Below, one piece after another: positions 4,370-15,620 of a stretch of 44,707 nucleotides of DNA (position 1 is its first letter; each line of letters opens with the position of its first letter). The notes beneath the pieces were generated by a model. It saw only the letters and a list, made by a program, of their open reading frames with translations. It had not been told where the DNA came from and did not search any database. The position numbers and the translations under genes were made by a program. Source of the stretch: Escherichia phage phiEco273. Where the stretch lies: the sequence record PP786691.1. One strand, 5' to 3'.

Positions 4370-4600
4370 TTAATCTTTTAAATCGTCATCGGTCGCTGAA
4401 AGCGTGATGGGGATATCCGATTTGATGACCAAATTAGACGACCCATAGATGGCCCCGGTGTGCGGATCGGTATAGAAACCTATCACTCCGCGCTCCACCA
4501 TATCGTCGATTGCCTTCGTCGAAGTGCCACCTTTTGCCAGCCCAGCCTGGCGGACAATTGCCGATTTACTGAATCCAGTATGGTCCGGGTTGTCTTCCAT
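4370..4600 (-). CDS. hypothetical protein (76 aa from internal ATG overlapping primase stop)
   Basis: ORF 4370..4627; ATG at 4600 overlaps upstream stop by one base, suggesting translational coupling. Confidence 0.4.
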   Translation of the reverse strand: MEDNPDHTGFSKSAIVRQAGLAKGGTSTKAIDDMVERGVIGFYTDPHTGAIYGSSNLVIKSDIPITLSATDDDLKD

Positions 4601-6633
4601 CAGTTTTTCCAGTGCCGCATAAAGCACTTTCTCTTTTCGTTGCGCGGTCCGGCGGTGTTCTCTTCCTTAACCGCGGCCTTGCCTGCCGCCTTCGCCTGTT
4701 CAATAGCGAACGGTGCCAGGGCAACCGGTACGAGGTAGAGAGTCTCGTCGCGTGGCGTGGAGGCAATTGGCTTGACGTCCCATCCGGCAACCACGTCGCC
4801 GAAGTCTGGCCCGGTGCTGGTGGACTGGTGCGCCTCGAACGCTTCTGACTTGCGGAGATCTACCTTAACCTTGCACTTGAGCAGGACGAAGCCACGCGGC
4901 GCTTGCTTGATGCCGTTACGTGACTTCTCATGATACAGGTTCAATTGTCCGGGCTGGTTGTCGTCCGGCTGTTCCAGGAAGAACGCAGAATCGACAGCAC
5001 CATGCAGCGCGCCGGACCCGCGTGGCGTTCTGCTGCCGTTTGCACCTTTAGCCGGGTGGTGGATGACTCCCGCACTACCACCTGTATTTTCCGCGATGGC
5101 CTTCAGCGCTTTGACCACTTCACCCATATCGCTGGCGTTGTTCTCGTCGAACGGTTTAGCATCCGCGGACCGCAACGCAACAGTCTGGTTTAGTGAGTCG
5201 AACGCCACCAGGCCAACCGGTTCGCCGTTAGCGGTGCGGTTGATAAAGCTGATAACTTCGCGCAAGCCTGATTTGCTGGTGATATCCCAGCCGCGTGACT
5301 GCAGGTCTATAATGTGCAGCTTGTCCAGGTCGTGCTCATATTTAATCTGCAATGCTTCTTTACGCTGGTTGGAGGCTTCGCCACCTTCCGCATCGAAATA
5401 GAAGCAATGAGACTGGACGACCTTCGCACCGCCAAACGGAATACCGGCGGCAACCGCTCCCATCTGGCCCAGCACATAGAAAGACTTACCGATATTCGAC
5501 TCGCCAGCCATGTACCAGGTCGATTTAAAGTTAATCAACCCCTCGATAATCGGGTCGTGCTTACTGAACAGCGCAACCGGCTCGTTATCCAGATCCGCAT
5601 CGGTGCACACGCCGTATTCTTCGCCGTCGCCAACCGCATCAACGATATGTTCATAGCACGATTCCACTTCTTCGTCGTCCAGCCCCGGAAGGATGGCGGC
5701 GATTTGCTTACGGGACATATTGTGTGGCTCGACGTTCAGGTGATCCGGGATCCCGATAAGACGTAGCGCCAGGTGCTGGTGTCTGTTCAGTTCCGAGCAA
5801 CACTCGTTACCGGTGTGCATACACTTGAAACGGATCTCGCCATCCTTGACCATGATAGCCGTCGACCCTTCGCCGCTGTGCAGATGTTCGTTCGGGCACG
5901 GCACTTCATAACCGCGACCGGAAGATAACTCCTCGAATCCTGCCTGGAAGCACCAGTCCAGAATACCGTCTGCCACTGCGTCGTCACCCTGGGTAAGCTC
6001 GCGGCGTACTTCCTCTTTTTCCACCCCCAGCTTGTCAGCCAGGCGGAGCAGACGACGGACGCGGGCGCGCTTGCCATAGTGGCACTTAATAACAGACTGC
6101 TGGTGTGGCAGGTACATCAGGCGGTTTGTGTCTTTCGTGCAATCGTCGAAGTCCACATCTGACAGACCCAGTTGGTGTAATAGTGCATACTGGACGCGGC
6201 CCAGGTCTTCAGCCGGTACAGGCTTGTCAGTGAGTACCAGGAATCGAGCGCAACGCGTGCCGCCTTTCAGTGGGTGACGGTCGCCGGTTGTGGTGTGAAA
6301 TACGTGTTCCAGCCCCGCGTCAATGAACGCCTTACGGCAGCGGCGTAGGGTGCGGGTGTCGGTACGGTCAATATCGAAGAACAGGATCGAGCGGTCCACC
6401 GCACTGGTCTTACGACGCAATCCGTCACTGGTATACGCCACGATGCCGTCGGCCTTACGCTTGCGGCGCGCATACTCGGCTTTATCTTCCGTCTTGTTGA
6501 TATGCACCGAGGAGATTTCTTTCGCATCTTTGATAAATTCGAAAAATTCATCGGTGGTCATCTGGAAGTTTTCCGCCCTGGCTTTTTCGCCTTTTTTAGC
6601 GGGTCTTGTAACAGCGAATTTAATTAAGCTCAT
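4600..6633 (-). CDS. DNA primase/helicase (N-terminal primase-polymerase-like domain, C-terminal RecA/DnaB-like P-loop NTPase)
   Basis: 677 aa; Walker A GESNIGKS in C-terminal half; N-terminal region with acidic FFDIDRTD motif resembling prim-pol domains; AAGG RBS. Confidence 0.7.
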   Translation of the reverse strand: MSLIKFAVTRPAKKGEKARAENFQMTTDEFFEFIKDAKEISSVHINKTEDKAEYARRKRKADGIVAYTSDGLRRKTSAVDRSILFFDIDRTDTRTLRRCRKAFIDAGLEHVFHTTTGDRHPLKGGTRCARFLVLTDKPVPAEDLGRVQYALLHQLGLSDVDFDDCTKDTNRLMYLPHQQSVIKCHYGKRARVRRLLRLADKLGVEKEEVRRELTQGDDAVADGILDWCFQAGFEELSSGRGYEVPCPNEHLHSGEGSTAIMVKDGEIRFKCMHTGNECCSELNRHQHLALRLIGIPDHLNVEPHNMSRKQIAAILPGLDDEEVESCYEHIVDAVGDGEEYGVCTDADLDNEPVALFSKHDPIIEGLINFKSTWYMAGESNIGKSFYVLGQMGAVAAGIPFGGAKVVQSHCFYFDAEGGEASNQRKEALQIKYEHDLDKLHIIDLQSRGWDITSKSGLREVISFINRTANGEPVGLVAFDSLNQTVALRSADAKPFDENNASDMGEVVKALKAIAENTGGSAGVIHHPAKGANGSRTPRGSGALHGAVDSAFFLEQPDDNQPGQLNLYHEKSRNGIKQAPRGFVLLKCKVKVDLRKSEAFEAHQSTSTGPDFGDVVAGWDVKPIASTPRDETLYLVPVALAPFAIEQAKAAGKAAVKEENTAGPRNEKRKCFMRHWKN

Positions 6634-8193: not shown

Positions 8194-8382
8194 ATGGCTA
8201 TATTCTTTGTTTTATTTCGTTGCCGTATTACCGGCGACGAGCAACCGGAAATTGTTATGAATCAAAACTGGAATTGCTGCTGGATGCAAGCCCGAGGACT
8301 GGCGGCTACCATGAACAATGCCGCTAAGCGGGCCAATGTTGAACATGACTATTACATTGCTCAATTTACACGGGTGGAATGA
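8194..8382 (+). CDS. small hypothetical protein
   Basis: 62-aa ORF, Cys/Trp-rich; weak. Confidence 0.25.
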   Translation: MAIFFVLFRCRITGDEQPEIVMNQNWNCCWMQARGLAATMNNAAKRANVEHDYYIAQFTRVE

Positions 8383-9812
8383 TGGCGATTAAACCAAAAC
8401 GTAAGACGCAATCCGGCAGCAATACGGAACACTCATTACTCGGGCCATCCGGTGCTAAAAAATGGATGGGTTGCCCCGCCGCCCTGGTGGTAGAAAAAGA
8501 TATCCCGAACGAATCCGGGCAAGCCGCGATTAACGGTACGAGTATGCACACCGTATCGGAGGTGGTGCTAAACCGCATTATCGCCGGTGAGAAGCTGATA
8601 ACCGCGAAGACGTATAAAGGGTGCTACGTCGAGAACGAAGGCAAGGGGCCAGTAAAGGCACACCCGAAAGCACCGAAAGGCGGCGTACTGGTCAACGACG
8701 ACATGGTGAAACAGTGCGACGCGTACATCGACCACTGGCGACCGCTCATCGAAGTGGCGGAGTTTATCCAGCTTGAGATGCGCGCCGATCTGACCCGCGT
8801 CCTTCACTCAGGCTACGAGATCGACGGCAACAGGATTAAAACGTTCGGTACTGCCGATATGGTCATGGTCATGAAAAAGACCGATGGAACGTACATGCTG
8901 ATTGTTGGCGACCTGAAGACCGGGCGGCATAAGGTCGAGGCGAAAGAGAACAAACAGCTTATGTTGTACGCGCTCGGCCTGCTGCGCAAGCTGCAAACTA
9001 TGTACGACATTACGACCGTGCGCCTGGTTATCTTCCAGCCGTATTGCGGTGGGGCGTCGGAGTGGGATATTTCGGTAGAAGCGCTGGAGATATTCGCGAA
9101 GTTTGCATCCAAGCGCGCTATTGCCGCACTGGAGGCGTATTCCCGAGGCAAGAAGGGGCTTACCCGTGCCGACTTCCGCCCCAGCGTTGATGCGTGCCAG
9201 TGGTGCCGATTTGCGGATCAGTGTAGTGCCCGCGCTAAGGCCGCAATCGACACGATGACACACCCAACGGCAACCGACGAAGACCTGGGCGACGACGTGA
9301 GTATTGCGACAGAGGAAGAATGCGCCAACCATGACCGCAATATGGCCCGCGAAGCCAGGAAGGCGGCACGACGTGCGAAGCGTGGTAAGAAAGAAGCGGC
9401 CCACGGTGCTATGAGCGCTGCGGAACTGCGCAAGGCTTATGAAGGCCTGGACGCAATGCGCCAGCACATCAAGGCTATCGAGTCCGCGGTATTCAAGGCG
9501 GTCATGGCGGGCGATGGCGAATCGCTGGGCCTCAAGATGGTTGCCGGTAAGGAAGGGATCCGTAAGTGGGCGGACGAGAGCGAAGTGATTGAAATCTTCA
9601 CGAAGGCCCGGATCAAGCGCGATGTGATGTACAAAGAAACATTGCTCAGCCCTACGGATGCCGAGAAGGTACTGAAGGACGAAAAACCGAAAGTGTGGGC
9701 GAAGCTGTGTGCTAAAATCACGCGCGCACCCGCCAAACCGGTGTTAGCCCCAATCGACGACCCTCGCCCTGCGTGGTCGGAAGCTACTGACGAGGACTTA
9801 AACAATGAATAA
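8379..9812 (+). CDS. Cas4-like PD-(D/E)XK exonuclease (DUF2800-like) with C-terminal Cys cluster
   Basis: 477 aa; N-terminal LLGPSGAKKWMGCPA motif, D/E-K core (IVGDLKTG), CQWCRFADQC cluster; adjacent to SSB-like gene as in known phage replication modules. Confidence 0.65.
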   Translation: MMAIKPKRKTQSGSNTEHSLLGPSGAKKWMGCPAALVVEKDIPNESGQAAINGTSMHTVSEVVLNRIIAGEKLITAKTYKGCYVENEGKGPVKAHPKAPKGGVLVNDDMVKQCDAYIDHWRPLIEVAEFIQLEMRADLTRVLHSGYEIDGNRIKTFGTADMVMVMKKTDGTYMLIVGDLKTGRHKVEAKENKQLMLYALGLLRKLQTMYDITTVRLVIFQPYCGGASEWDISVEALEIFAKFASKRAIAALEAYSRGKKGLTRADFRPSVDACQWCRFADQCSARAKAAIDTMTHPTATDEDLGDDVSIATEEECANHDRNMAREARKAARRAKRGKKEAAHGAMSAAELRKAYEGLDAMRQHIKAIESAVFKAVMAGDGESLGLKMVAGKEGIRKWADESEVIEIFTKARIKRDVMYKETLLSPTDAEKVLKDEKPKVWAKLCAKITRAPAKPVLAPIDDPRPAWSEATDEDLNNE

Positions 9813-10047
9813 AGTATTCGCAATCTTATTGATGTTTTTGCTCGGCGCGCTGGGATTTATCCTGCATTGCGTGCAAGGCGTGTTAATGGTGGCCTGGATG
9901 ATTCGCCATCCGACCCGCTGGCTGGATAACGGCTATAGCGAAGCCGCCGTCGATTGGGCAAAGAAGAACATCGACCGACCGCCATTAAGCTGGCTCTGGA
10001 GCGCCATTAACTACGTAACCAGAAATCTTTTTAATGAAAATGCTTGA
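9805..10047 (+). CDS. small membrane protein
   Basis: 80 aa with two hydrophobic helices. Confidence 0.4.
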   Translation: MNKVFAILLMFLLGALGFILHCVQGVLMVAWMIRHPTRWLDNGYSEAAVDWAKKNIDRPPLSWLWSAINYVTRNLFNENA

Positions 10048-10137
10048 CCGCGTAGGCGCAACCAAGTAGATTAGCAACCAAGCCGAACGGGGTGGCTTCC
10101 AATAACCCCGATACATGTGAAAATGAGGAATTGGAAA

Positions 10138-10920
10138 ATGGCTAAAGTCAACCTGAAAAATGTGCGCGTATGTTTCCTTAAAATTTGGGAACGTGATACC
10201 CCTAAACAGGATGGACAAAAACCGGCATACCGCGCCGTGATTCTTCTTGATAAAGAAGATCCGCAGGTGGACAAAGTGGAAGCGGCAGCGCGCGCAGTGC
10301 TCACCGACAAGCTGAAATCCGAGAAGAATGCCGATAAGTGGATGGACCGCCACTACGCCCAGGATTCTAAGGAATGCGCAGTACGCGACGGTGACGAGCG
10401 CGACGAAGTAACCGAAGAATTCGAAGGCATGTTGTACATCAACGCCAAATCGTTCAAACAGCCAAACATTCAAACGTCACTCGGCGAGAAGCAGACCGAA
10501 CAGGGTCTGACCGTAGAAGGCGACGAAATCGAAGGCCAGGAGATCTACTCCGGTTGTTATTGCAATGTGTCCCTCGATATCTGGGCGTGGAACAATACCA
10601 ACGGCAAGGGACTCGGGGCTGGTTTGCTGGGGCTGCGATTCCGTGACGACGGCGAAGCCTTCGGCGGTGGCGGATCTTCTTGCTCAGACGAGGACCTGGG
10701 CGACGATGACGAAGATGAAAGCCCGCGCAAGTCCAAAAAGTCAAAACGTCGTGATGACGATGACGAAGATGACAAGCCGCGCAAGTCCAAAAAGTCCAAG
10801 CGCCGCGATGACGACGACGATGAGGAAGATGAAAAACCTCGCAAACGTCGTAAGCCACGCGATGACGAAGATGAGGACGACGACGAAGACGAAGCGCCAC
10901 GCAAACGTCGCCGCCGTTAA
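10138..10920 (+). CDS. ssDNA-binding/annealing protein, T7 gp2.5-like (DUF2815-like) with alternating acidic/basic C-terminal repeats
   Basis: ATG at 10138 with GAGGA RBS; N-terminus MAKVNLKNVRVCFLKIWER resembles gp2.5/DUF2815; C-terminal repeats DDDDEDDKPRKSKKSKRR x3-4. Confidence 0.55.
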   Translation: MAKVNLKNVRVCFLKIWERDTPKQDGQKPAYRAVILLDKEDPQVDKVEAAARAVLTDKLKSEKNADKWMDRHYAQDSKECAVRDGDERDEVTEEFEGMLYINAKSFKQPNIQTSLGEKQTEQGLTVEGDEIEGQEIYSGCYCNVSLDIWAWNNTNGKGLGAGLLGLRFRDDGEAFGGGGSSCSDEDLGDDDEDESPRKSKKSKRRDDDDEDDKPRKSKKSKRRDDDDDEEDEKPRKRRKPRDDEDEDDDEDEAPRKRRRR

Positions 10921-10938
10921 GGGCAAAGCCCACTATTC

Positions 10939-10965
10939 AAGCCCGCTTAATGCGGGCTTTTTAAT
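10939..10965 (+). terminator. intrinsic terminator (AGCCCGC-TTAAT-GCGGGCT + TTTTT)
   Basis: Hairpin and T-run directly after SSB stop. Confidence 0.55.
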
Positions 10966-10978
10966 AGGACAATGAAAA

Positions 10979-11148
10979 ATGCGCATTAAAGCCAGCGAAG
11001 TAAAAGTCGGAATGCGGGTATGGTCCAAGCTACTGGGGGAGTATTTCACAGTTGCCGAGATCCGCAACAACGGCGAGGAGATAGCCCTTTCCGACGGTAT
11101 ATTCTCCATGATCGGCAGCGCTGACGCCGTAGTGAGGATTAAGCAATG
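10979..11148 (+). CDS. small hypothetical protein (56 aa)
   Basis: ATG 10979; stop overlaps DNA polymerase ATG (ATGA); below ORF-track cutoff. Confidence 0.35.
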
Positions 11149-13437
11149 AAAGACTTCGAACGCCTTTTTCTCGATACCGAGACATTTAGCGGGGTGGACC
11201 TGAAGAAAGTGGGCGCATACGCCTACGCGGAACACCCAACTACCGAGATTATGATTTGCACATACGCCATCGACGAGGGCCGCGTACAGACATGGGATTG
11301 CACCGAATCCCCCACAATGCCGCGTGAACTGCGCAAGGCGCTCCGCCGGGTATCCCGCAAGAAAGCAAAAATCGTGATGGCTAACGGCCTCCTGTTTGAC
11401 CGCCTGGTTATTCGCGAGAAGTGGGGCATTGACCTGCCGGTAGGCCAGATCGAAGATACCATGATTATGGCCTTTCGCCACGCGCTGCCGGGTAGCCTCG
11501 ATATGCAGTGCCAGGTGTTGGGCGTTGACGCAGAGCACGCGAAGGATAAGGCTGGCAAGGCGCTAATCAAACGATTCTGTAAGCCAACCCCTAAGACCTA
11601 CAAAATCCGTCGCTATACGCGCGAGACGCACCCCGAGGAGTGGGCTAAATTCCTGCGCTACGCCGCGCTGGATATTGTTGCTATGCGTGAAGTCTACTGG
11701 CGCATACCAGACTGGGGCAACACGCCGAAGGAAGATGAAATCCTGCTTATTGACCAGATGATTAACGACCGCGGCTTCTATGTGGACGTTGACCTGGCTA
11801 ACGCCGCGATCAAAGCGGTGCAGGCGCATAAGGAAGAATTGAAGGAAGAAGCATGGGAGCGCTTCGGCGGTAAGCTGACCGGCAATGACTTCCTGCCAGC
11901 GCTGCGCGACCTCGCGCCTGCGTTCACAATACACAACGCGCAGAAATCCACGCTTAACGAACTGCTGGAAGACCAGGACTTCCCCGACGAGGGCAAAGTG
12001 CTTATCGAGATGCGCCTCGGCGCGTCATCAACGGCATCGACTAAGTACAATCCGCTCGTAAATGGGCTGTCTGCCGATGGTCGCCGCCGTGGTTGTCTTC
12101 AGTATGGTGGGGCAAAGCGCACGCTACGCTGGGCCGGAAAGGGCTTCCAGCCGCAAAACCTGGCACGCGGCGAGTATAGCGACGACCACGAAGGGAAGAT
12201 TAAGCGCCGTGATGGCGAGAGCGACGTCGCGTTTTGGGTGCGGTCGCACATGCTCACCAACGGCATCAACTCCCTGTTACGCGGGACCGCACACTGGGCG
12301 TATGACATATCGAAGCTAACGGCCTCGACTGTTCGCGGGTGCATTATTCCGGCGAAGGGTAAGAAGTTTGTCGTAGCGGACTACTCCAACGTGGAAGGGC
12401 GTGGCCTCGCCTGGATCGCTGGCGAGAAAACCGCGCTAATGGTGTTTAGGGCGGGTCGCGATATCTATTGTGAAACTGCCGGTAAGATGTTTGGCCTCGA
12501 CCCGGAATACATTAAAGCCAACCGCAAAGACTTACGCCAGATCGGTAAGGCGTGCGAATTGGGCCTGGGCTATGGTGGTGGCGTGGCGGCGTTCTTGCAG
12601 TTCGCTAAAAACCTGGGCCTCGACCTTTACGCGATGGCTGAAGTGATGAAGGGCACATTCCCCGATCACATTTGGGCGGCGGCGAAACGGGGTTATGAGT
12701 ACGCCCGGATCAACGAAGCGAAGCGCCCGCCGAAGCCTGGCAAGAAGGACGAGCGCCCAACTTATATACTGCCGAAAAACGTATGGTTGACGTGTGATGC
12801 GATCAAACGTATGTGGCGCGAGTCGCACCCGAAGACGGTAGCATTTTGGGCTGAACTGGAAGACGCGGTGCTCTGCGCGATCCGCAATCCGGGCAAAGCG
12901 TACTGGGCTGGCGCGAACGTTCGCCCGGATGGCAAGAAAGCGCTCAAGATAGTCCGCACGAAGGCGAAGCACGACCCCACCTTCGACGAGGAGCGCGACG
13001 ACCCGAACGCCGCGGGGTGGTGGTTGAAAATCGAGTTGCCGTCGGGGCGCATCATGAGTTATCCGGGCATTGCGCTGTCAGTGACTACCGAGATCGACGA
13101 AGATACCGGCAAGAAGCGCACCAGCACCCGCATTAAATATCAGGGCGAGAATCAGACGACCCGCCAGTGGGGCTTCCAGTACACCTACGGCGGCAAACTC
13201 ACGGAAAACATCATACAGGCGCTGTGTCGCGATATCCTCGCATGGTCCATGCCGGGCGTTGAATCTGCGGGATATGAGATCGTACTGTCCGTACACGATG
13301 AACTGATAACCGAAGTGCCGGATACTGACGACTACACAACCGAGGAGTTGTGCGCGCTGATGTGCGACCTGCCTGTTTGGGCGAAAGGCTTCCCGCTTGC
13401 CGCGGAAGGCGACATTATGTACAGGTACAGAAAATAA
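11146..13437 (+). CDS. DNA polymerase, family A (PolA-like) with 3'-5' exonuclease domain
   Basis: 763 aa; N-terminal exonuclease motif LFLDTETFSG; long polymerase-like C-terminal region ending ...SVHDELITEVP (family A motif C-like). Confidence 0.8.
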   Translation: MKDFERLFLDTETFSGVDLKKVGAYAYAEHPTTEIMICTYAIDEGRVQTWDCTESPTMPRELRKALRRVSRKKAKIVMANGLLFDRLVIREKWGIDLPVGQIEDTMIMAFRHALPGSLDMQCQVLGVDAEHAKDKAGKALIKRFCKPTPKTYKIRRYTRETHPEEWAKFLRYAALDIVAMREVYWRIPDWGNTPKEDEILLIDQMINDRGFYVDVDLANAAIKAVQAHKEELKEEAWERFGGKLTGNDFLPALRDLAPAFTIHNAQKSTLNELLEDQDFPDEGKVLIEMRLGASSTASTKYNPLVNGLSADGRRRGCLQYGGAKRTLRWAGKGFQPQNLARGEYSDDHEGKIKRRDGESDVAFWVRSHMLTNGINSLLRGTAHWAYDISKLTASTVRGCIIPAKGKKFVVADYSNVEGRGLAWIAGEKTALMVFRAGRDIYCETAGKMFGLDPEYIKANRKDLRQIGKACELGLGYGGGVAAFLQFAKNLGLDLYAMAEVMKGTFPDHIWAAAKRGYEYARINEAKRPPKPGKKDERPTYILPKNVWLTCDAIKRMWRESHPKTVAFWAELEDAVLCAIRNPGKAYWAGANVRPDGKKALKIVRTKAKHDPTFDEERDDPNAAGWWLKIELPSGRIMSYPGIALSVTTEIDEDTGKKRTSTRIKYQGENQTTRQWGFQYTYGGKLTENIIQALCRDILAWSMPGVESAGYEIVLSVHDELITEVPDTDDYTTEELCALMCDLPVWAKGFPLAAEGDIMYRYRK

Positions 13438-13972: not shown

Positions 13973-14191
13973 ATGAAAGATCATTACCGACTCACCAAGC
14001 TGGGCGAATGTAAACCGGGCGATCGCGTATGGTTTATCGCGGGCATGAATGACCCGCTGCCGTTGACGGTATGCTGGCAAAAATTTAAGAGCTTCCGGGC
14101 GACGGGTGTGCACATCGGGCACCGCACCAACTACGACGCCACAAAAAGGAACTGGAACAGTGAAACCGAAGTCTGGAAAAAGGCGGAATAG
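13973..14191 (+). CDS. hypothetical protein
   Basis: 72 aa from ATG 13973 (GGGAGA RBS). Confidence 0.4.
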   Translation: MKDHYRLTKLGECKPGDRVWFIAGMNDPLPLTVCWQKFKSFRATGVHIGHRTNYDATKRNWNSETEVWKKAE

Positions 14192-14195
14192 AGAT

Positions 14196-15620
14196 ATGGC
14201 ACGTTTCCGACGTCGCGAATATCAGAAGTTGATAACCGCGTTCATCCTCAAGCATAAGCGCTGCAATATTTGGGCGACAATGGGGTCGGGTAAAACCGGC
14301 GCGACTATGTGGGCGCTGAATAAAATGTTCCAGACTGGTATCCTGTCCAACCAGGAGGACCGCGTACTGGTGCTGGCCCCGCTGCGCGTTGCGTCCGGTA
14401 CATGGCCCCCGGAGCAGGAGAAATGGCGCTTCCCCGCCCTGCTGGTAGTAGACGGCACCGGGTCAGAGAAGGACCGCATCGCTGCGCTTGAGAGCGACGC
14501 TAACGTGGTTTGTGTTAACTATGATGTGGTTGAGTGGCTGGTTGACTATTGCGGCGACGAGTGGCCCTTTACGGTCGTTGTTGCCGATGAATCCACTAAG
14601 CTGAAAGGCTACCGCAGCAAGCAGGGCAGTAAGCGCGCCCGCGCCCTGGCGGCGATCGCACATAAGCGCGTCAAGCGCTGGATTAACCTTACAGGCACAC
14701 CCGCGCCAAACGGATTGAAAGACCTGTGGGGTCAGACGTGGTTTGTCGACGGTGGCGAACGCCTCGGCAGTAGCTATAAGGCATTTACGGACCGCTGGTT
14801 TATTAGCAAGCCTGTTAAGCCTGGCAGCTTCACGATGCAACACGCCCCGCTCAAGAACTCCGAGAAAGAAATACAACAACGCCTGTCTGACGTATCGCTC
14901 ACCGTTGACGCGGCTGAATACTTCGGATGTGATAAACCAATCTATACGCCGGTTGTTGTGGACCTGCCGAGGAAAGCCCGCAAGATTTATGACCAGTTCG
15001 AAGCGGAGCTATTTGCCGAACTGGAAAGCGGAACGGTGGAGGCGGCGAACGCTGCGTCGAAGACTATTAAGTGCCTTCAGCTTGCTTCCGGGGCCGTGTA
15101 TAAGGTCGACGAAGACGGCGAACGGACCGACGAATGGGTGAAAATTCACGACGCTAAGCTGGACGCGCTGGAAAGTATCGTGGAGGAGTTGAACGGCGCA
15201 CCGTTGCTCGTCGCATACCAGTACAAGCATGACTTGGCACGTCTTAAGAAGAAATTCCCACACGGCGTCGCTATGGGTAAGGGAAAGCAAGGCAATAAGG
15301 ATATGGAAGCGTGGAACAGGGGCGAGATCCCCATCATGTTCGCACACCCGGCATCGGCGGGTCACGGCCTTAACTTGCAGGATGGCGGACACCACCTTGC
15401 TATCTTCTCAGACACCTGGAACTTTGAGCACTTTTCGCAGATCGTGGAGCGTATCGGGCCGGTTCGCCAGATACAAGCCGGACACCCTCGTCCGGTATTC
15501 GTCTACATTATCCAGGCGCGCGGCACACTTGACGAACTGGTCGCCGAGCGTCGCGACAGTAAGCGGGATATTCAGGACGATTTGATGGAATACATGAAAG
15601 CTAAAAAGGCGCGCAAATGA
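14196..15620 (+). CDS. SNF2/DEAD-like superfamily 2 helicase
   Basis: ATG 14196; Walker A GSGKTG, motif II VVADESTKLK, helicase C-terminal domain. Confidence 0.75.
   Translation: MARFRRREYQKLITAFILKHKRCNIWATMGSGKTGATMWALNKMFQTGILSNQEDRVLVLAPLRVASGTWPPEQEKWRFPALLVVDGTGSEKDRIAALESDANVVCVNYDVVEWLVDYCGDEWPFTVVVADESTKLKGYRSKQGSKRARALAAIAHKRVKRWINLTGTPAPNGLKDLWGQTWFVDGGERLGSSYKAFTDRWFISKPVKPGSFTMQHAPLKNSEKEIQQRLSDVSLTVDAAEYFGCDKPIYTPVVVDLPRKARKIYDQFEAELFAELESGTVEAANAASKTIKCLQLASGAVYKVDEDGERTDEWVKIHDAKLDALESIVEELNGAPLLVAYQYKHDLARLKKKFPHGVAMGKGKQGNKDMEAWNRGEIPIMFAHPASAGHGLNLQDGGHHLAIFSDTWNFEHFSQIVERIGPVRQIQAGHPRPVFVYIIQARGTLDELVAERRDSKRDIQDDLMEYMKAKKARK

Follow-up and report, generated by a model that had tools for sequence, protein, structure and literature searches.

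Bacterial and phage SSBs (proteins that bind single-stranded DNA) are treated as universally carrying an acidic C-terminal tail. The SSB of Escherichia phage phiEco273 departs from this rule, as its tail alternates between acidic and basic blocks and ends in RKRRRR, and the locus thus raises the question of what such a tail is, how it arose and what it might do. The question extends to a large and much-isolated group of enterobacterial siphophages, including Dhillonvirus, Jerseyvirus and Kagunavirus, whose SSBs bear a polybasic tip and hold the acidic docking peptide internally. Natural variants with one, two, three and four modules are present in culture collections (welsh, EP23, HK578/SECphi4 and the BASEL phages), and an orthologue has already been cloned as a retron trigger, so that the system is easy to test. 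A peptide that co-varies between the SSB and a neighbouring exonuclease offers a concrete handle on the wiring of the duf2800-gp2.5-polA module. Even if the tail modules turn out to lack a phenotype, they would show how far an SSB tail can drift with its docking peptide preserved. In what follows, the window is the whole 44,707-nt stretch of DNA that was analysed, and features lie on the plus strand unless stated otherwise.

The SSB gene and its neighbourhood

The SSB gene spans 10138..10920 and encodes 260 amino acids plus a stop codon. Its start is the ATG at 10138, which is preceded at a distance of 8 nt by GAGGA (10125..10129), the likely ribosome-binding site as read from the sequence; an in-frame GTG further upstream, at 10117, could also serve as the start, with lower likelihood, and the homologues begin MAKVNLKNV. 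The product is an Enc34/DUF2815-type, gp2.5-like protein with a putative role in ssDNA binding and annealing. Its assignment to the DUF2815/gp2.5 class, made earlier in the sequence-only reading, is borne out by Pfam PF10991 (Enc34_ssDNA-bd, DUF2815), which matches residues 3-193 at 109.9 bits against a cut-off of 26 (E=1.5e-31), and by structural matches to Enc34 ORF6 and T7 gp2.5. PHROG 112, annotated as ssDNA-binding and annealing protein, matches at E=2.6e-55, and sequence searches of the PDB return 4klk, 4jg2 and 5odj. Residues 1-179 (10138..10674) form an OB-fold domain that ends in an FGGGG linker, and the fold is predicted confidently (AF2 pLDDT 94-98 over residues 1-172). The top Foldseek matches are 4klk, 5odl/5odj/5odk, 4jg2 and 1je5, with E-values of 1.3e-12 for 5odl (the Enc34 SSB with ssDNA) and 1.8e-6 for 1je5 (T7 gp2.5). 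In those two proteins the 5' bases are stacked by an aromatic residue, Trp150 in Enc34 and Tyr158 in T7 (PMC5686142). The conserved aromatic is present in phiEco273 as W149, the aligned counterpart of Trp150; Enc34's second stacking residue, Tyr156, pairs with Asn155 and is therefore not conserved. With the gene 96% identical in nucleotide sequence to those of Dhillonvirus phages, its product is the replication/recombination SSB of a Dhillonvirus-like siphophage.

Upstream, the SSB gene adjoins a gene for a DUF2800 / PD-(D/E)XK exonuclease (8379..9812; Pfam PF10926, E=3.3e-66), and downstream lies a family A DNA polymerase, PolA (11146..13437; Pfam PF00476, PHROG 17), which is a candidate partner of the SSB tail. 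This exonuclease-SSB-PolA order, with PolA third, places phiEco273 among phages with the duf2800-gp2.5-polA replication/recombination module, which has been named and described before (PMC8093625). The order was found in 18 genomic contexts including phiEco273, and is shared with Enc34, Scapp, Guernseyvirinae and 10 metagenomic contigs. Just past the SSB stop codon, at 10939..10962, is an intrinsic-terminator-like hairpin with an 8-bp GC-rich stem, a 5-nt loop and a U-run. A consensus terminator scan gave no call there; direct folding did, with an RNA fold of -24.8 kcal/mol (z = -4.8; 0/200 shuffles equally stable), and the annotations of Shemara and Scapp put a terminator at this same point. 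Two other open frames run through the tail region, a minus-strand poly-Ser ORF (10557-10904) and a +1-frame ORF (10565-10975). Neither has a Pfam match or independent conservation, and both were rejected as overlapping genes, being by-products of the GAN/AAR/CGN repeats; outside frameshifted records the +1 frame is not seen.

Architecture, variation and spread of the tail

The tail comprises residues 180-260 (81 amino acids; 36 D/E and 28 K/R), and the interval 10660-10920 given for it in the sequence-only reading correctly covers the Gly linker and the tail. It has three parts, namely a proximal acidic/hydrophobic motif, SDEDLGDDDEDE, four acid/Pro/base modules and a terminal APRKRRRR. After the end of the domain (...DGEAFGGGG) and a short SSCS segment come the proximal motif DEDLGDDDEDE (residues 184-194, 10687..10719), which is supported by alignment with short-tailed homologues and by co-variation, and the basic block of module 1, SPRKSKKSKRR (residues 195-205, 10720..10752). 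Module 2 is DDDDEDD followed by KPRKSKKSKRR (residues 206-223, 10753..10806; 87% identical in DNA to module 1), module 3 is DDDDDEEDE followed by KPRKRRKPR (residues 224-241, 10807..10860), and module 4 is DDEDEDDDEDE followed by APRKRRRR (residues 242-260, 10861..10917), with APRKRRRR itself at 10894-10917. In nucleotide terms the four units run from 10687-10752, 10753-10806, 10807-10860 and 10861-10917. Each module thus opens with an acidic block 7-11 residues long, which a proline separates from a basic block of 6-10. The alternating acidic/basic repeats described earlier are therefore real, as four acid-then-base modules in the translation; the basic block PRKSKKSKRR proposed for all of them is found in modules 1 and 2, and is replaced by PRKRRKPR in module 3 and PRKRRRR in module 4.

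The tail is a blocky polyampholyte in its charge segregation and, by prediction, its intrinsic disorder. The charged fraction of its residues is 0.79 and the net charge per residue -0.10, and charge blockiness (kappa) is 0.58 vs 0.11 in composition-preserving shuffles (z = 10.4; 0/20,000 shuffles equal). AF2 predicts coil from about residue 175, at pLDDT 49-72, and the sole secondary structure in the tail is a 4-residue helical turn at 184-187. A separate fused domain, one of the origins suggested earlier, was rejected, as there is no Pfam match past residue 193 and AF2 gives coil at a pLDDT of ~50. The other suggestion, an expanded low-complexity module, is upheld, since Tandem Repeats Finder (TRF) reports a 54-bp period (2.3-2.6 copies, 80-86% match, 10701-10844) and a repeat search found 54-nt copies at 10702, 10756 and 10816 with identities of 100, 87 and 61%. 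A 45-nt family in the same search joins units 3 and 4 at 78% identity. The modules arose by tandem duplication of ~54-bp units.

Repeat number varies in nature, as had been proposed for checking. Isolated Dhillonviruses have from one to four modules, with whole modules gained or lost in frame. Welsh has one module; EP23 and P-GXEC-L2P5 have two; HK578, Envy, BF9 and SECphi4 have three; and phiEco273, Sponge, SO-1, Gluttony, HH3, RuthEpting and SECphi18 have four, the number kept in most Dhillonvirus records. The internal units lost differ from phage to phage, with module 2 missing in HK578, Envy, EP23 and welsh, and module 3 missing in BF9, SECphi4, EP23 and welsh. The two ends of the tail are stable. 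The proximal acidic motif is invariant in Dhillonvirus genes with one to four modules, and the terminal APRKRRRR is kept in 15 of the 16 intact Dhillonvirus genes read, HH3 having one Arg fewer. Purifying selection acts on the codons of the tail, including residues within the modules. For the tail, dN/dS lies at 0.02-0.10 (dS 0.17-0.78), close to the 0.01-0.06 of the OB fold, with the caveat that low-complexity alignment biases the tail value downward and that few alternative paths exist for D/E/K/R codons. The internal modules are not essential, because single-module welsh and records with frameshifted tails exist, and any tuning effect of module number may be small.

Beyond phiEco273, this frame and architecture are shared by 154 phage records, with nucleotide identities of 83-96%, and the protein cluster with this architecture holds 537 member sequences; in total the protein search matched ~800 phage records, including some that come from unrelated hosts and have unread tails. 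Every homologue whose OB domain is at least 44% identical has a tail of this kind. The SSBs of Jerseyvirus and Kagunavirus have one module, and the tips seen in these two genera, PRRERRRR and PRRERRRNR, are related ones. In the clade of the phiEco273 SSB, 71 of 98 members have a basic C-terminal end, and in a second, metagenomic clade of 24 members, 2-12 modules stand ahead of a canonical acidic tip of the DDDVA type or DDDEIPF. For the family at large, tail-type frequencies were taken only from a homologue search with the OB domain alone, because low-complexity words dominate the candidates of a full-protein search (161 significant of 8000), which over-samples mixed tails; in distant proteins, tail start was set by phmmer alignment coordinates. 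On this basis, ~87% of sampled unbiased representatives have short, purely acidic tails, like that of Enc34 ORF6 (PMC5686142), which agrees with the family norm assumed at the outset. A short, purely acidic tail with a hydrophobic or aromatic end is thus a family-typical trait, lying outside the Pfam definition, that the phiEco273 SSB lacks. About 16 changes of tail state fall on the OB-domain tree, a rough figure because the tree was built by neighbour joining from a 154-column domain alignment. The tail type spans its clade (Dhillonvirus, Guernseyvirinae, numerous metagenomic relatives) and turns up again elsewhere in the family. On lineage specificity, which was to be checked, the tail is thus clade-wide rather than restricted to phiEco273 or its genus. 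A search of mostly open-access literature found nothing on SSB tails of mixed charge, on those of Dhillonvirus SSBs or on the tails of DUF2815 and DUF2800 proteins. Hundreds of enterobacterial phages have an SSB tail of acid/base repeats and polybasic tip, a type undescribed as far as that search goes; published work on the SSBs of SECphi4, SECphi18 and HK578 displayed residues 1-186 and omitted the 'flexible C-terminal residues', leaving the tail undescribed.

The proximal motif, rival explanations and a proposed mechanism

In alignment, SDEDLGDDD at the start of the tail is in register with the D-D-F/L-D-D-L tails of short-tailed homologues and of Enc34. The acidic tail has thus not been replaced, as first supposed; it is retained, with the basic modules added behind it. 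The peptide is also present in the exonuclease, whose C-terminus, ...SEATDEDLNNE (motif at 9789-9803), repeats the SSB proximal motif and whose internal copy reads TATDEDLGDD (9276-9290). A six-frame search of the window found the motif at these two exonuclease sites and in the SSB only, and the exonuclease motif is conserved in 10 Dhillonviruses. In other phages the pair changes together: Shemara has ATDSDLED at the end of the exonuclease and ATDSDLDDDD in the SSB, and Enc34 has GAYDDEDEDDDEV and DAYDEDEDEWDEDEV, respectively, each at the protein's end. Over 17 genomes, which are phylogenetically non-independent, matched pairs score 24.4 vs 18.7 for mismatched pairs (permutation p = 5e-5). 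Because the peptide recurs at the exonuclease C-terminus and co-varies with it, the proximal motif is read as a retained partner-docking peptide, and because the same peptide co-varies between phages, SSB and exonuclease probably dock on one common site. The peptides SSCSDEDLGDDDEDE and WSEATDEDLNNE are the pair considered for this putative site, with PolA, an AAA_25 primase-helicase (4600-6633, minus strand), an SNF2 helicase (14106-15620), the exonuclease and the SSB OB domain as candidate partners.

Several explanations compete for the modules that follow. An artefact of sequencing or assembly, or a mis-called frame in the repeats, was raised at the outset, and errors or real frameshifts do occur in the tail region, because in four database sequences (Ioannina, 101114B2, 22664B1 (P0005) and P0009) all or part of it is read in the +1 frame. 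For phiEco273 this reading deserves practically no credence and was rejected: the in-frame architecture is found in >150 independently sequenced phage genomes (the 154 records above), in the 537-member cluster and in distant genera, and synonymous divergence with amino-acid conservation indicates that the tail frame is translated. Rather unlikely, to our minds, is a neutral low-complexity expansion of the internal modules by replication slippage or unequal recombination, in which the terminal module was duplicated, a disordered region tolerates the copies, and only the proximal acidic motif, perhaps with the tip, matters. Copy number does range from one to four in isolated phages with a nucleotide identity of 81-96% between their genes, the deleted units differ among them, the DNA identity of units 1 and 2 suggests recent duplication or conversion, and small in-frame codon indels are common (gene lengths 771-792 nt). 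However, the low tail dN/dS persists at dS up to 0.78; units 1-2 and unit 3 share only ~61% nucleotide identity, yet have the same charge pattern and Pro junction; most Dhillonvirus records retain four modules; and modules of a similar kind, as many as 12, evolved in separate family branches.

Basic blocks and poly-Arg tip might instead be chiefly nucleic-acid-binding, either neutralizing phosphate repulsion and so speeding annealing in the exonuclease/SSB recombination pair, or binding dsDNA or RNA primers and thereby condensing or tethering DNA. DNA condensation is one of two effects hypothesised in the sequence-only reading, the other being a change in partner binding. The P-R-K-R-R-R-R tip resembles arginine-rich nucleic-acid-binding peptides, basic ends prevail in the phiEco273 clade, the SSB adjoins a recombination-type exonuclease in 17/17 sequenced contexts and in one contig listed without DNA, and annotation gives the family an ssDNA-binding and annealing role (PHROG 112; PMC8093625). 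The tail is nonetheless net acidic, each basic block is flanked by an acidic block of at least its own size, expected to compete with DNA, and the same modules in the second clade precede an acidic tip, so that we regard a chiefly nucleic-acid-binding tail as unlikely. Evasion of defence or host factors, with a basic cap hiding the acidic tail from defence systems or from host partners of the SSB C-terminus, seems very improbable. Phage SSBs trigger several defence systems, those of SECphi4 and SECphi18 trigger Retron-Eco8, and variability in copy number and indels would fit an arms race. The escape mutations reported for SECphi4 and SECphi18 (T56P, F106V, N152H and a promoter change), which concern Retron-Eco8 and a second defence system, nevertheless all lie in the OB fold or promoter, with none in the tail, which was accordingly rejected as a site of defence escape; Retron-Eco8 activation is unchanged by deletion of the T7 gp2.5 tail (PMC13402713), and selection on the tail is purifying, not diversifying, with invariant end motifs. 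These escape mutations are the only functional data on the SSB, and are uninformative on the tail.

The explanation that we prefer, at about an even chance for the whole, is a disordered composite tail in which a conserved acidic docking peptide is followed by modules appended as an electrostatic tuner. In a role like that of gp2.5, the proximal acidic peptide would occlude the DNA cleft, conferring ssDNA selectivity, and would also dock to a replisome or recombination partner. Enc34 ORF6 binds dsDNA once its acidic tail is removed (PMC5686142), and the T7 gp2.5 tail is reported to mediate cooperativity and polymerase/helicase contacts (as quoted in 10.64898/2026.02.22.705581 and PMC13402713). 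The basic modules are proposed, from their sequence, to tune self-association and DNA or partner contacts electrostatically. Their basic blocks would pair with acidic ones, both inside a single molecule and from one SSB molecule to its neighbour, and would contact the DNA backbone; together, pairing and contact would set cooperativity and self-association on ssDNA and favour strand annealing. The poly-Arg tip would make a second, specific contact with nucleic acid or an acidic partner surface, and module number would set valency and reach, akin to the tuning of cooperativity by the disordered linker of E. coli SSB. A bolder combination, which we consider quite unlikely as a whole, would make the acid/base modules a selectable valency dial for SSB self-association and the co-evolving SSB/exonuclease peptide an unrecognised docking hub. 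Self-association on ssDNA may then be electrostatic, giving either cooperative filaments or replication/recombination foci that resemble condensates, the polybasic tip may serve as the terminal contact instead of the textbook acidic tip, and the hub may belong to the duf2800-gp2.5-polA module, with thousands of phages using it.

Comparison with known systems

The closest well-described relative is the Enc34 ORF6 SSB (PDB 5ODJ/5ODK/5ODL), from an Enterobacter/Hafnia phage, which has the same PF10991 family, fold and exonuclease-SSB-PolA order, and a disordered tail that likewise opens with an acidic/hydrophobic peptide which the C-terminus of the exonuclease repeats. The OB domains are only ~22% identical, and the Enc34 tail is short and purely acidic (16 of the last 29 residues D/E, ending ...WDEDEV), whereas that of phiEco273 has ~80 residues, 28 K/R in four blocks and the end RKRRRR. 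T7 gp2.5 shares the OB-fold class (1je5), its tail, too, is acidic and disordered, and both it and the SSBs of phiEco273 relatives trigger Retron-Eco8. In T7, gp2.5 and the gp4 helicase carry similar acidic tails that dock on the polymerase, so that the motif-sharing protein is a helicase there and an exonuclease in phiEco273. Unlike phiEco273, with its polybasic terminus and internal acidic/hydrophobic motif, T7 gp2.5 has an essential terminal aromatic (...EDGDF) and no basic blocks. Within the genus, the SSBs of SECphi4, SECphi18 and HK578 are orthologues with OB-domain protein identity of ~97-100% and the same tail architecture in three or four modules, differing only in module number and a few residues; all three are triggers of Retron-Eco8, and the behaviour of the SECphi4 and SECphi18 proteins as SSB triggers indirectly supports a putative preference for ssDNA and a strand-annealing role.

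Two further likenesses lie outside this family. Mixed-charge, blocky polyampholyte regions of eukaryotes are highly charged, alternate acidic with Arg/Lys blocks and have a repeat origin, and the phiEco273 tail is like them in charge, blockiness and repeat origin, although it is not homologous and belongs to a bacterial-virus protein; the likeness is only a lead. In outline, SSBs of the E. coli type have an OB core followed by a disordered stretch, variable in length, whose composition tunes cooperativity and condensation, and then a short docking peptide. The E. coli protein belongs to an unrelated OB family, and its linker is Gly/Gln/Pro-rich with little charge, whereas the phiEco273 segment is ~80% charged and blocky; the docking-type peptide comes after the linker in E. 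coli SSB and before the repeats in phiEco273. It is the second DUF2815 clade, with its modules followed by DDDVA or DDDEIPF tips, that closely mirrors the E. coli layout.

Fold and tail architecture of the SSB

The SSB gene of the window, an ORF at 10138-10920 (+) whose 3' end encodes the tail under study, begins with an ATG at 10138, with GAGGA in front of it at 10125-10129; since every homologue opens with MAKVNLKNV, the in-frame GTG at 10117 is, judging from sequence, a less probable start. The gene itself is already known, since orthologues are in the databases and have been used experimentally. PF10991 is the Enc34 ssDNA-binding family, formerly DUF2815, and the 260 aa product matches it at 109.9 bits over residues 3-193, as well as matching PHROG 112 ('Gp2.5-like ssDNA binding protein and ssDNA annealing protein'); its PDB relatives by sequence are 4klk, 4jg2 and 5odj (Enc34 ORF6). 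In an AlphaFold2 model based on an alignment of 109 sequences, pLDDT is 94-98 for residues 1-172 and 49-72 from approximately residue 175 to the end, the sole secondary structure in the tail being a four-residue turn (184-187). Foldseek linked the model to DUF2815 structures and Enc34 ORF6 (E 1e-13 to 1e-10) and to T7 gp2.5 (1je5, E = 1.8e-6), and W149 aligns with Trp150 of Enc34 ORF6, the 5'-stacking residue (PMC5686142). All tested features but one place the SSB in PF10991 and in the gp2.5 structural class; the exception is the acidic/hydrophobic C-terminus typical of the family, which is absent from the end of the protein.

Directly after an FGGGG linker (residues 175-179), the tail opens with SSCS-DEDLGDDDEDE-SPRKSKKSKRR, which includes module 1, continues through modules 2 and 3 (DDDDEDD-KPRKSKKSKRR, then DDDDDEEDE-KPRKRRKPR) and closes with module 4 (DDEDEDDDEDE-APRKRRRR). 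A sequence-only reading had described four repeats of an acidic block plus PRKSKKSKRR; this holds as an overall description, except that modules 3 and 4 do not carry that motif as their basic block. The matching near-tandem DNA repeats that it also reported are borne out by TRF (period 54 bp, 2.3-2.6 copies). Identity is 87% between units 1 and 2, 78% over 45 nt between units 3 and 4, and ~61% between the pair 1-2 and the pair 3-4; the tail arose by tandem duplication. Among its 81 residues are 36 D/E and 28 K/R, arranged with a blockiness (kappa) of 0.58 vs a mean of 0.11 for composition-matched shuffles (z = 10.4; 0/20,000). The tail is thus a blocky polyampholyte, predicted to be disordered.

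An acidic peptide common to SSB and exonuclease

The sequence-only reading had described an alternating acidic/basic tail instead of a purely acidic one. The terminus is indeed not acidic, but the acidic tail is not replaced: SDEDLGDDD in the proximal tail (10687-10701) aligns with the D-D-F/L-D-D-L core of short canonical tails. The DUF2800 / PD-(D/E)XK exonuclease (8379-9812) has an internal TATDEDLGDD (9276-9290) and, at its extreme C-terminus, SEATDEDLNNE (9789-9803). Across all six frames of the whole window, [DE][DE]D[LF][GDNES] matches three times only: at these two exonuclease sites and in the SSB. The exonuclease C-terminus tracks the SSB motif phage by phage, its end and the SSB tail reading, respectively, PATDSDLED and VATDSDLDDDD (proximal) in Shemara, VTEDDLEA and SVDDLEDDE (proximal) in f18SE, KSDFENLE and ADDFDELDE (proximal) in Scapp, and GAYDDEDEDDDEV and DAYDEDEDEWDEDEV in Enc34. 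When the last 14 exonuclease residues were compared with SSB tails across 17 phages or contigs including Enc34, a genome's own SSB tail scored a mean of 24.4 vs 18.7 for the others (permutation p = 5e-5, which is optimistic because the genomes are phylogenetically non-independent, although the effect is still present in unrelated lineages), and it ranked first in 8/17. The exonuclease motif is also conserved in ten further Dhillonviruses. An acidic docking peptide is therefore retained in the window SSB and co-evolves with the exonuclease. The simplest reading of these sequences suggests that both peptides dock on one site, which could be the polymerase, a helicase or the SSB cleft; as a precedent, T7 gp2.5 and the gp4 helicase reportedly have similar acidic tails.

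The window is the genome of a Dhillonvirus-like coliphage. Between exonuclease and SSB lies a small membrane ORF (9805-10047), and the SSB gene is followed by a terminator-like hairpin (10939-10962; -24.8 kcal/mol, z = -4.8), a 56-aa ORF (10979-11149, +; PHROG 10102, function unknown) and a family A polymerase (11146-13437); the exonuclease-SSB-polymerase set is the duf2800-gp2.5-polA module already described (PMC8093625). The polymerase CDS is 3189 nt in SO-1 and EP23 vs 2292 nt in the window, and a type I self-splicing intron is annotated in that gene of SO-1, so intron presence varies within the genus. Upstream of the SSB, a sigma-70-like promoter match (TTGACC-17-TAGATT, 10044-10072, +) occurs at a frequency equal to chance for the region; a SECphi4 mutation escaping Retron-Eco8 is located in the 'intergenic region upstream' of its SSB.

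Module number and spread of mixed tails

At the nucleotide level the SSB gene matches 154 phage records and is 96% identical to vB_EcoS_Sponge and SSL-2009a. Acinetobacter phage NJ01 and Campylobacter phage A144 records are also ~95% identical to this coliphage gene, which raises the possibility of mislabelled hosts or of contaminated samples. Repeat number varies, as the sequence-only reading had asked to be checked: in 17 Dhillonvirus genomes, intact genes encode one module in welsh (202 aa, tail DEDLDNDDEDE-APRKRRRR), two in EP23 and P-GXEC-L2P5 (224 aa), three in HK578, Envy, BF9 and SECphi4 (236-242 aa) and four in the window, Sponge, SO-1, Gluttony, HH3, RuthEpting and SECphi18 (256-263 aa), with gene lengths in BLAST tables indicating that the four-module form is commonest. 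(The P-GXEC-L2P5 record, at 88.6 kb or ~2x a Dhillonvirus genome, probably reflects assembly into a concatemer or chimera.) Units 1, 3 and 4 remain in HK578 and Envy, and units 1, 2 and 4 in BF9 and SECphi4; since the missing internal units differ between phages, the deletions were independent. The proximal DEDL[G/D][D/N]DDEDE is preserved in all intact versions, and all but HH3, with one Arg fewer, end in APRKRRRR. Whole modules are gained and lost in frame while the ends stay fixed.

Because the whole-protein homologue search was biased by low-complexity words, a search with the OB domain only was used instead. When 1.84 billion cluster representatives were scanned exhaustively with HMMER, 1976 proved to be family members (E ≤ 0.001). 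The tail contains one or more basic blocks in 19 (13%) of the 145 best near-full-length representatives, and the other 126 lack any tail block of at least three basic residues, nearly all having short acidic tails of ~16-35 residues with a hydrophobic/aromatic end (DFV, DIAF, IPF, DDDF); Enc34 ORF6, too, has a purely acidic tail (...DAYDEDEDEWDEDEV). Mixed tails are present in all homologues whose OB domain is at least 44% identical to that of the window. The feature is not specific to this phage or genus: mixed modules also occur in other genera and in a second clade of the family. One module is present in Jerseyvirus f18SE (ending ...SVDDLEDDEDETPRRERRRNR) and Kagunavirus fEg-Eco19 (ending ...VNDLEDDDDEKDEAPRRERRRR), two each in Cornellvirus Shemara and Hafnia phage TS33, and three, with an acidic end, in Serratia phage Scapp. 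The mixed state clusters strongly on the neighbour-joining tree built from 337 OB domains (16 parsimony changes vs 109 with shuffled labels): the window's clade (n=98) has a basic end in 71/98, and the second clade (n=24) has 2-12 modules followed by a canonical acidic/hydrophobic tip (DDDVA, DDDDI, DDDEIPF), one of its members being encoded on a phage-like contig of 43.5 kb, where exonuclease, SSB and polymerase follow each other in the same order. With ~18 further cases outside these clades, in small clades or as singletons, mixed-charge modules arose or spread repeatedly in the family. The tip either stays acidic or has become polybasic, the latter in the window's clade.

Possible roles of the tail

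The T7 tail mediates cooperativity as well as polymerase and helicase contacts, and removal of the acidic tail of the Enc34 protein leads to a gain of dsDNA binding (PMC5686142). In the picture that we propose, and which we hold to be an even proposition, the proximal peptide would retain these canonical acidic-tail roles and the appended modules would provide electrostatic tuning: the basic blocks may pair with acidic blocks, both within and between SSB molecules, and also contact DNA, thereby setting cooperativity, self-association and annealing, with the poly-Arg tip making a further, specific contact.

That the internal modules are a neutral expansion is rather improbable; they do come and go, but in six four-module genes (Nei-Gojobori) the dN/dS of the tail is 0.02-0.10 with dS of 0.17-0.78, next to 0.01-0.06 for the OB domain, and such low values while synonymous sites diverge indicate conserved module residues. 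The tail is under purifying selection, which argues against purely neutral low-complexity drift, although low-complexity alignment lowers dN and somewhat weakens the case. An assembly or sequencing error, which the sequence-only reading had named as its own refutation, is scarcely credible, the tail being intact across Dhillonvirus genomes. Four deposited Dhillonvirus SSB genes (Ioannina, 101114B2, 22664B1 and P0009) do read part or all of the tail in the +1 frame, which reflects either errors made in sequencing the repeats or a loss of the basic modules that is tolerated. In these genes the shift lies within or just before the repeats, and the …MTKMK…GFLIGQ product reads through the terminator, in a +1 frame equivalent to window 10565-10975.

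It is unlikely that the basic blocks serve mainly for nucleic-acid binding or annealing. An anti-defence adaptation is highly improbable. The exonuclease/SSB module is a recurrent target of defence sensing, and the SECphi4 and SECphi18 SSB orthologues trigger Retron-Eco8; this system and one other have selected escape mutations (T56P, F106V, N152H or changes in the promoter). These triggering and escape data, to which functional data on the SSB are limited, concern the OB fold, and a published structural figure of an orthologue omits the 'flexible C-terminal residues'. Escape of HK578 from P2 OLD maps close to the exonuclease/SSB operon, and the product of the 56-aa ORF (10979-11149) differs only by R13Q from the 'SECphi4 56aa protein of unknown function', for which a frameshift, E21fs, is among defence-escape mutants (Table S2, 10.1101/2022.08.27.505566).

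We found no description of the peptide sharing between SSB and exonuclease in the literature searched, where it appears to be undescribed, as do the tail architecture, the natural copy-number series, the selection signature and the spread of the tail to hundreds of isolated phages. Known from sequence and prediction, this tail is a clear exception to the rule that 'all SSBs end acidic' and a tractable system. Lying between the OB fold and the tip, the modules of the second clade look like the disordered E. coli SSB linker in a charged form.
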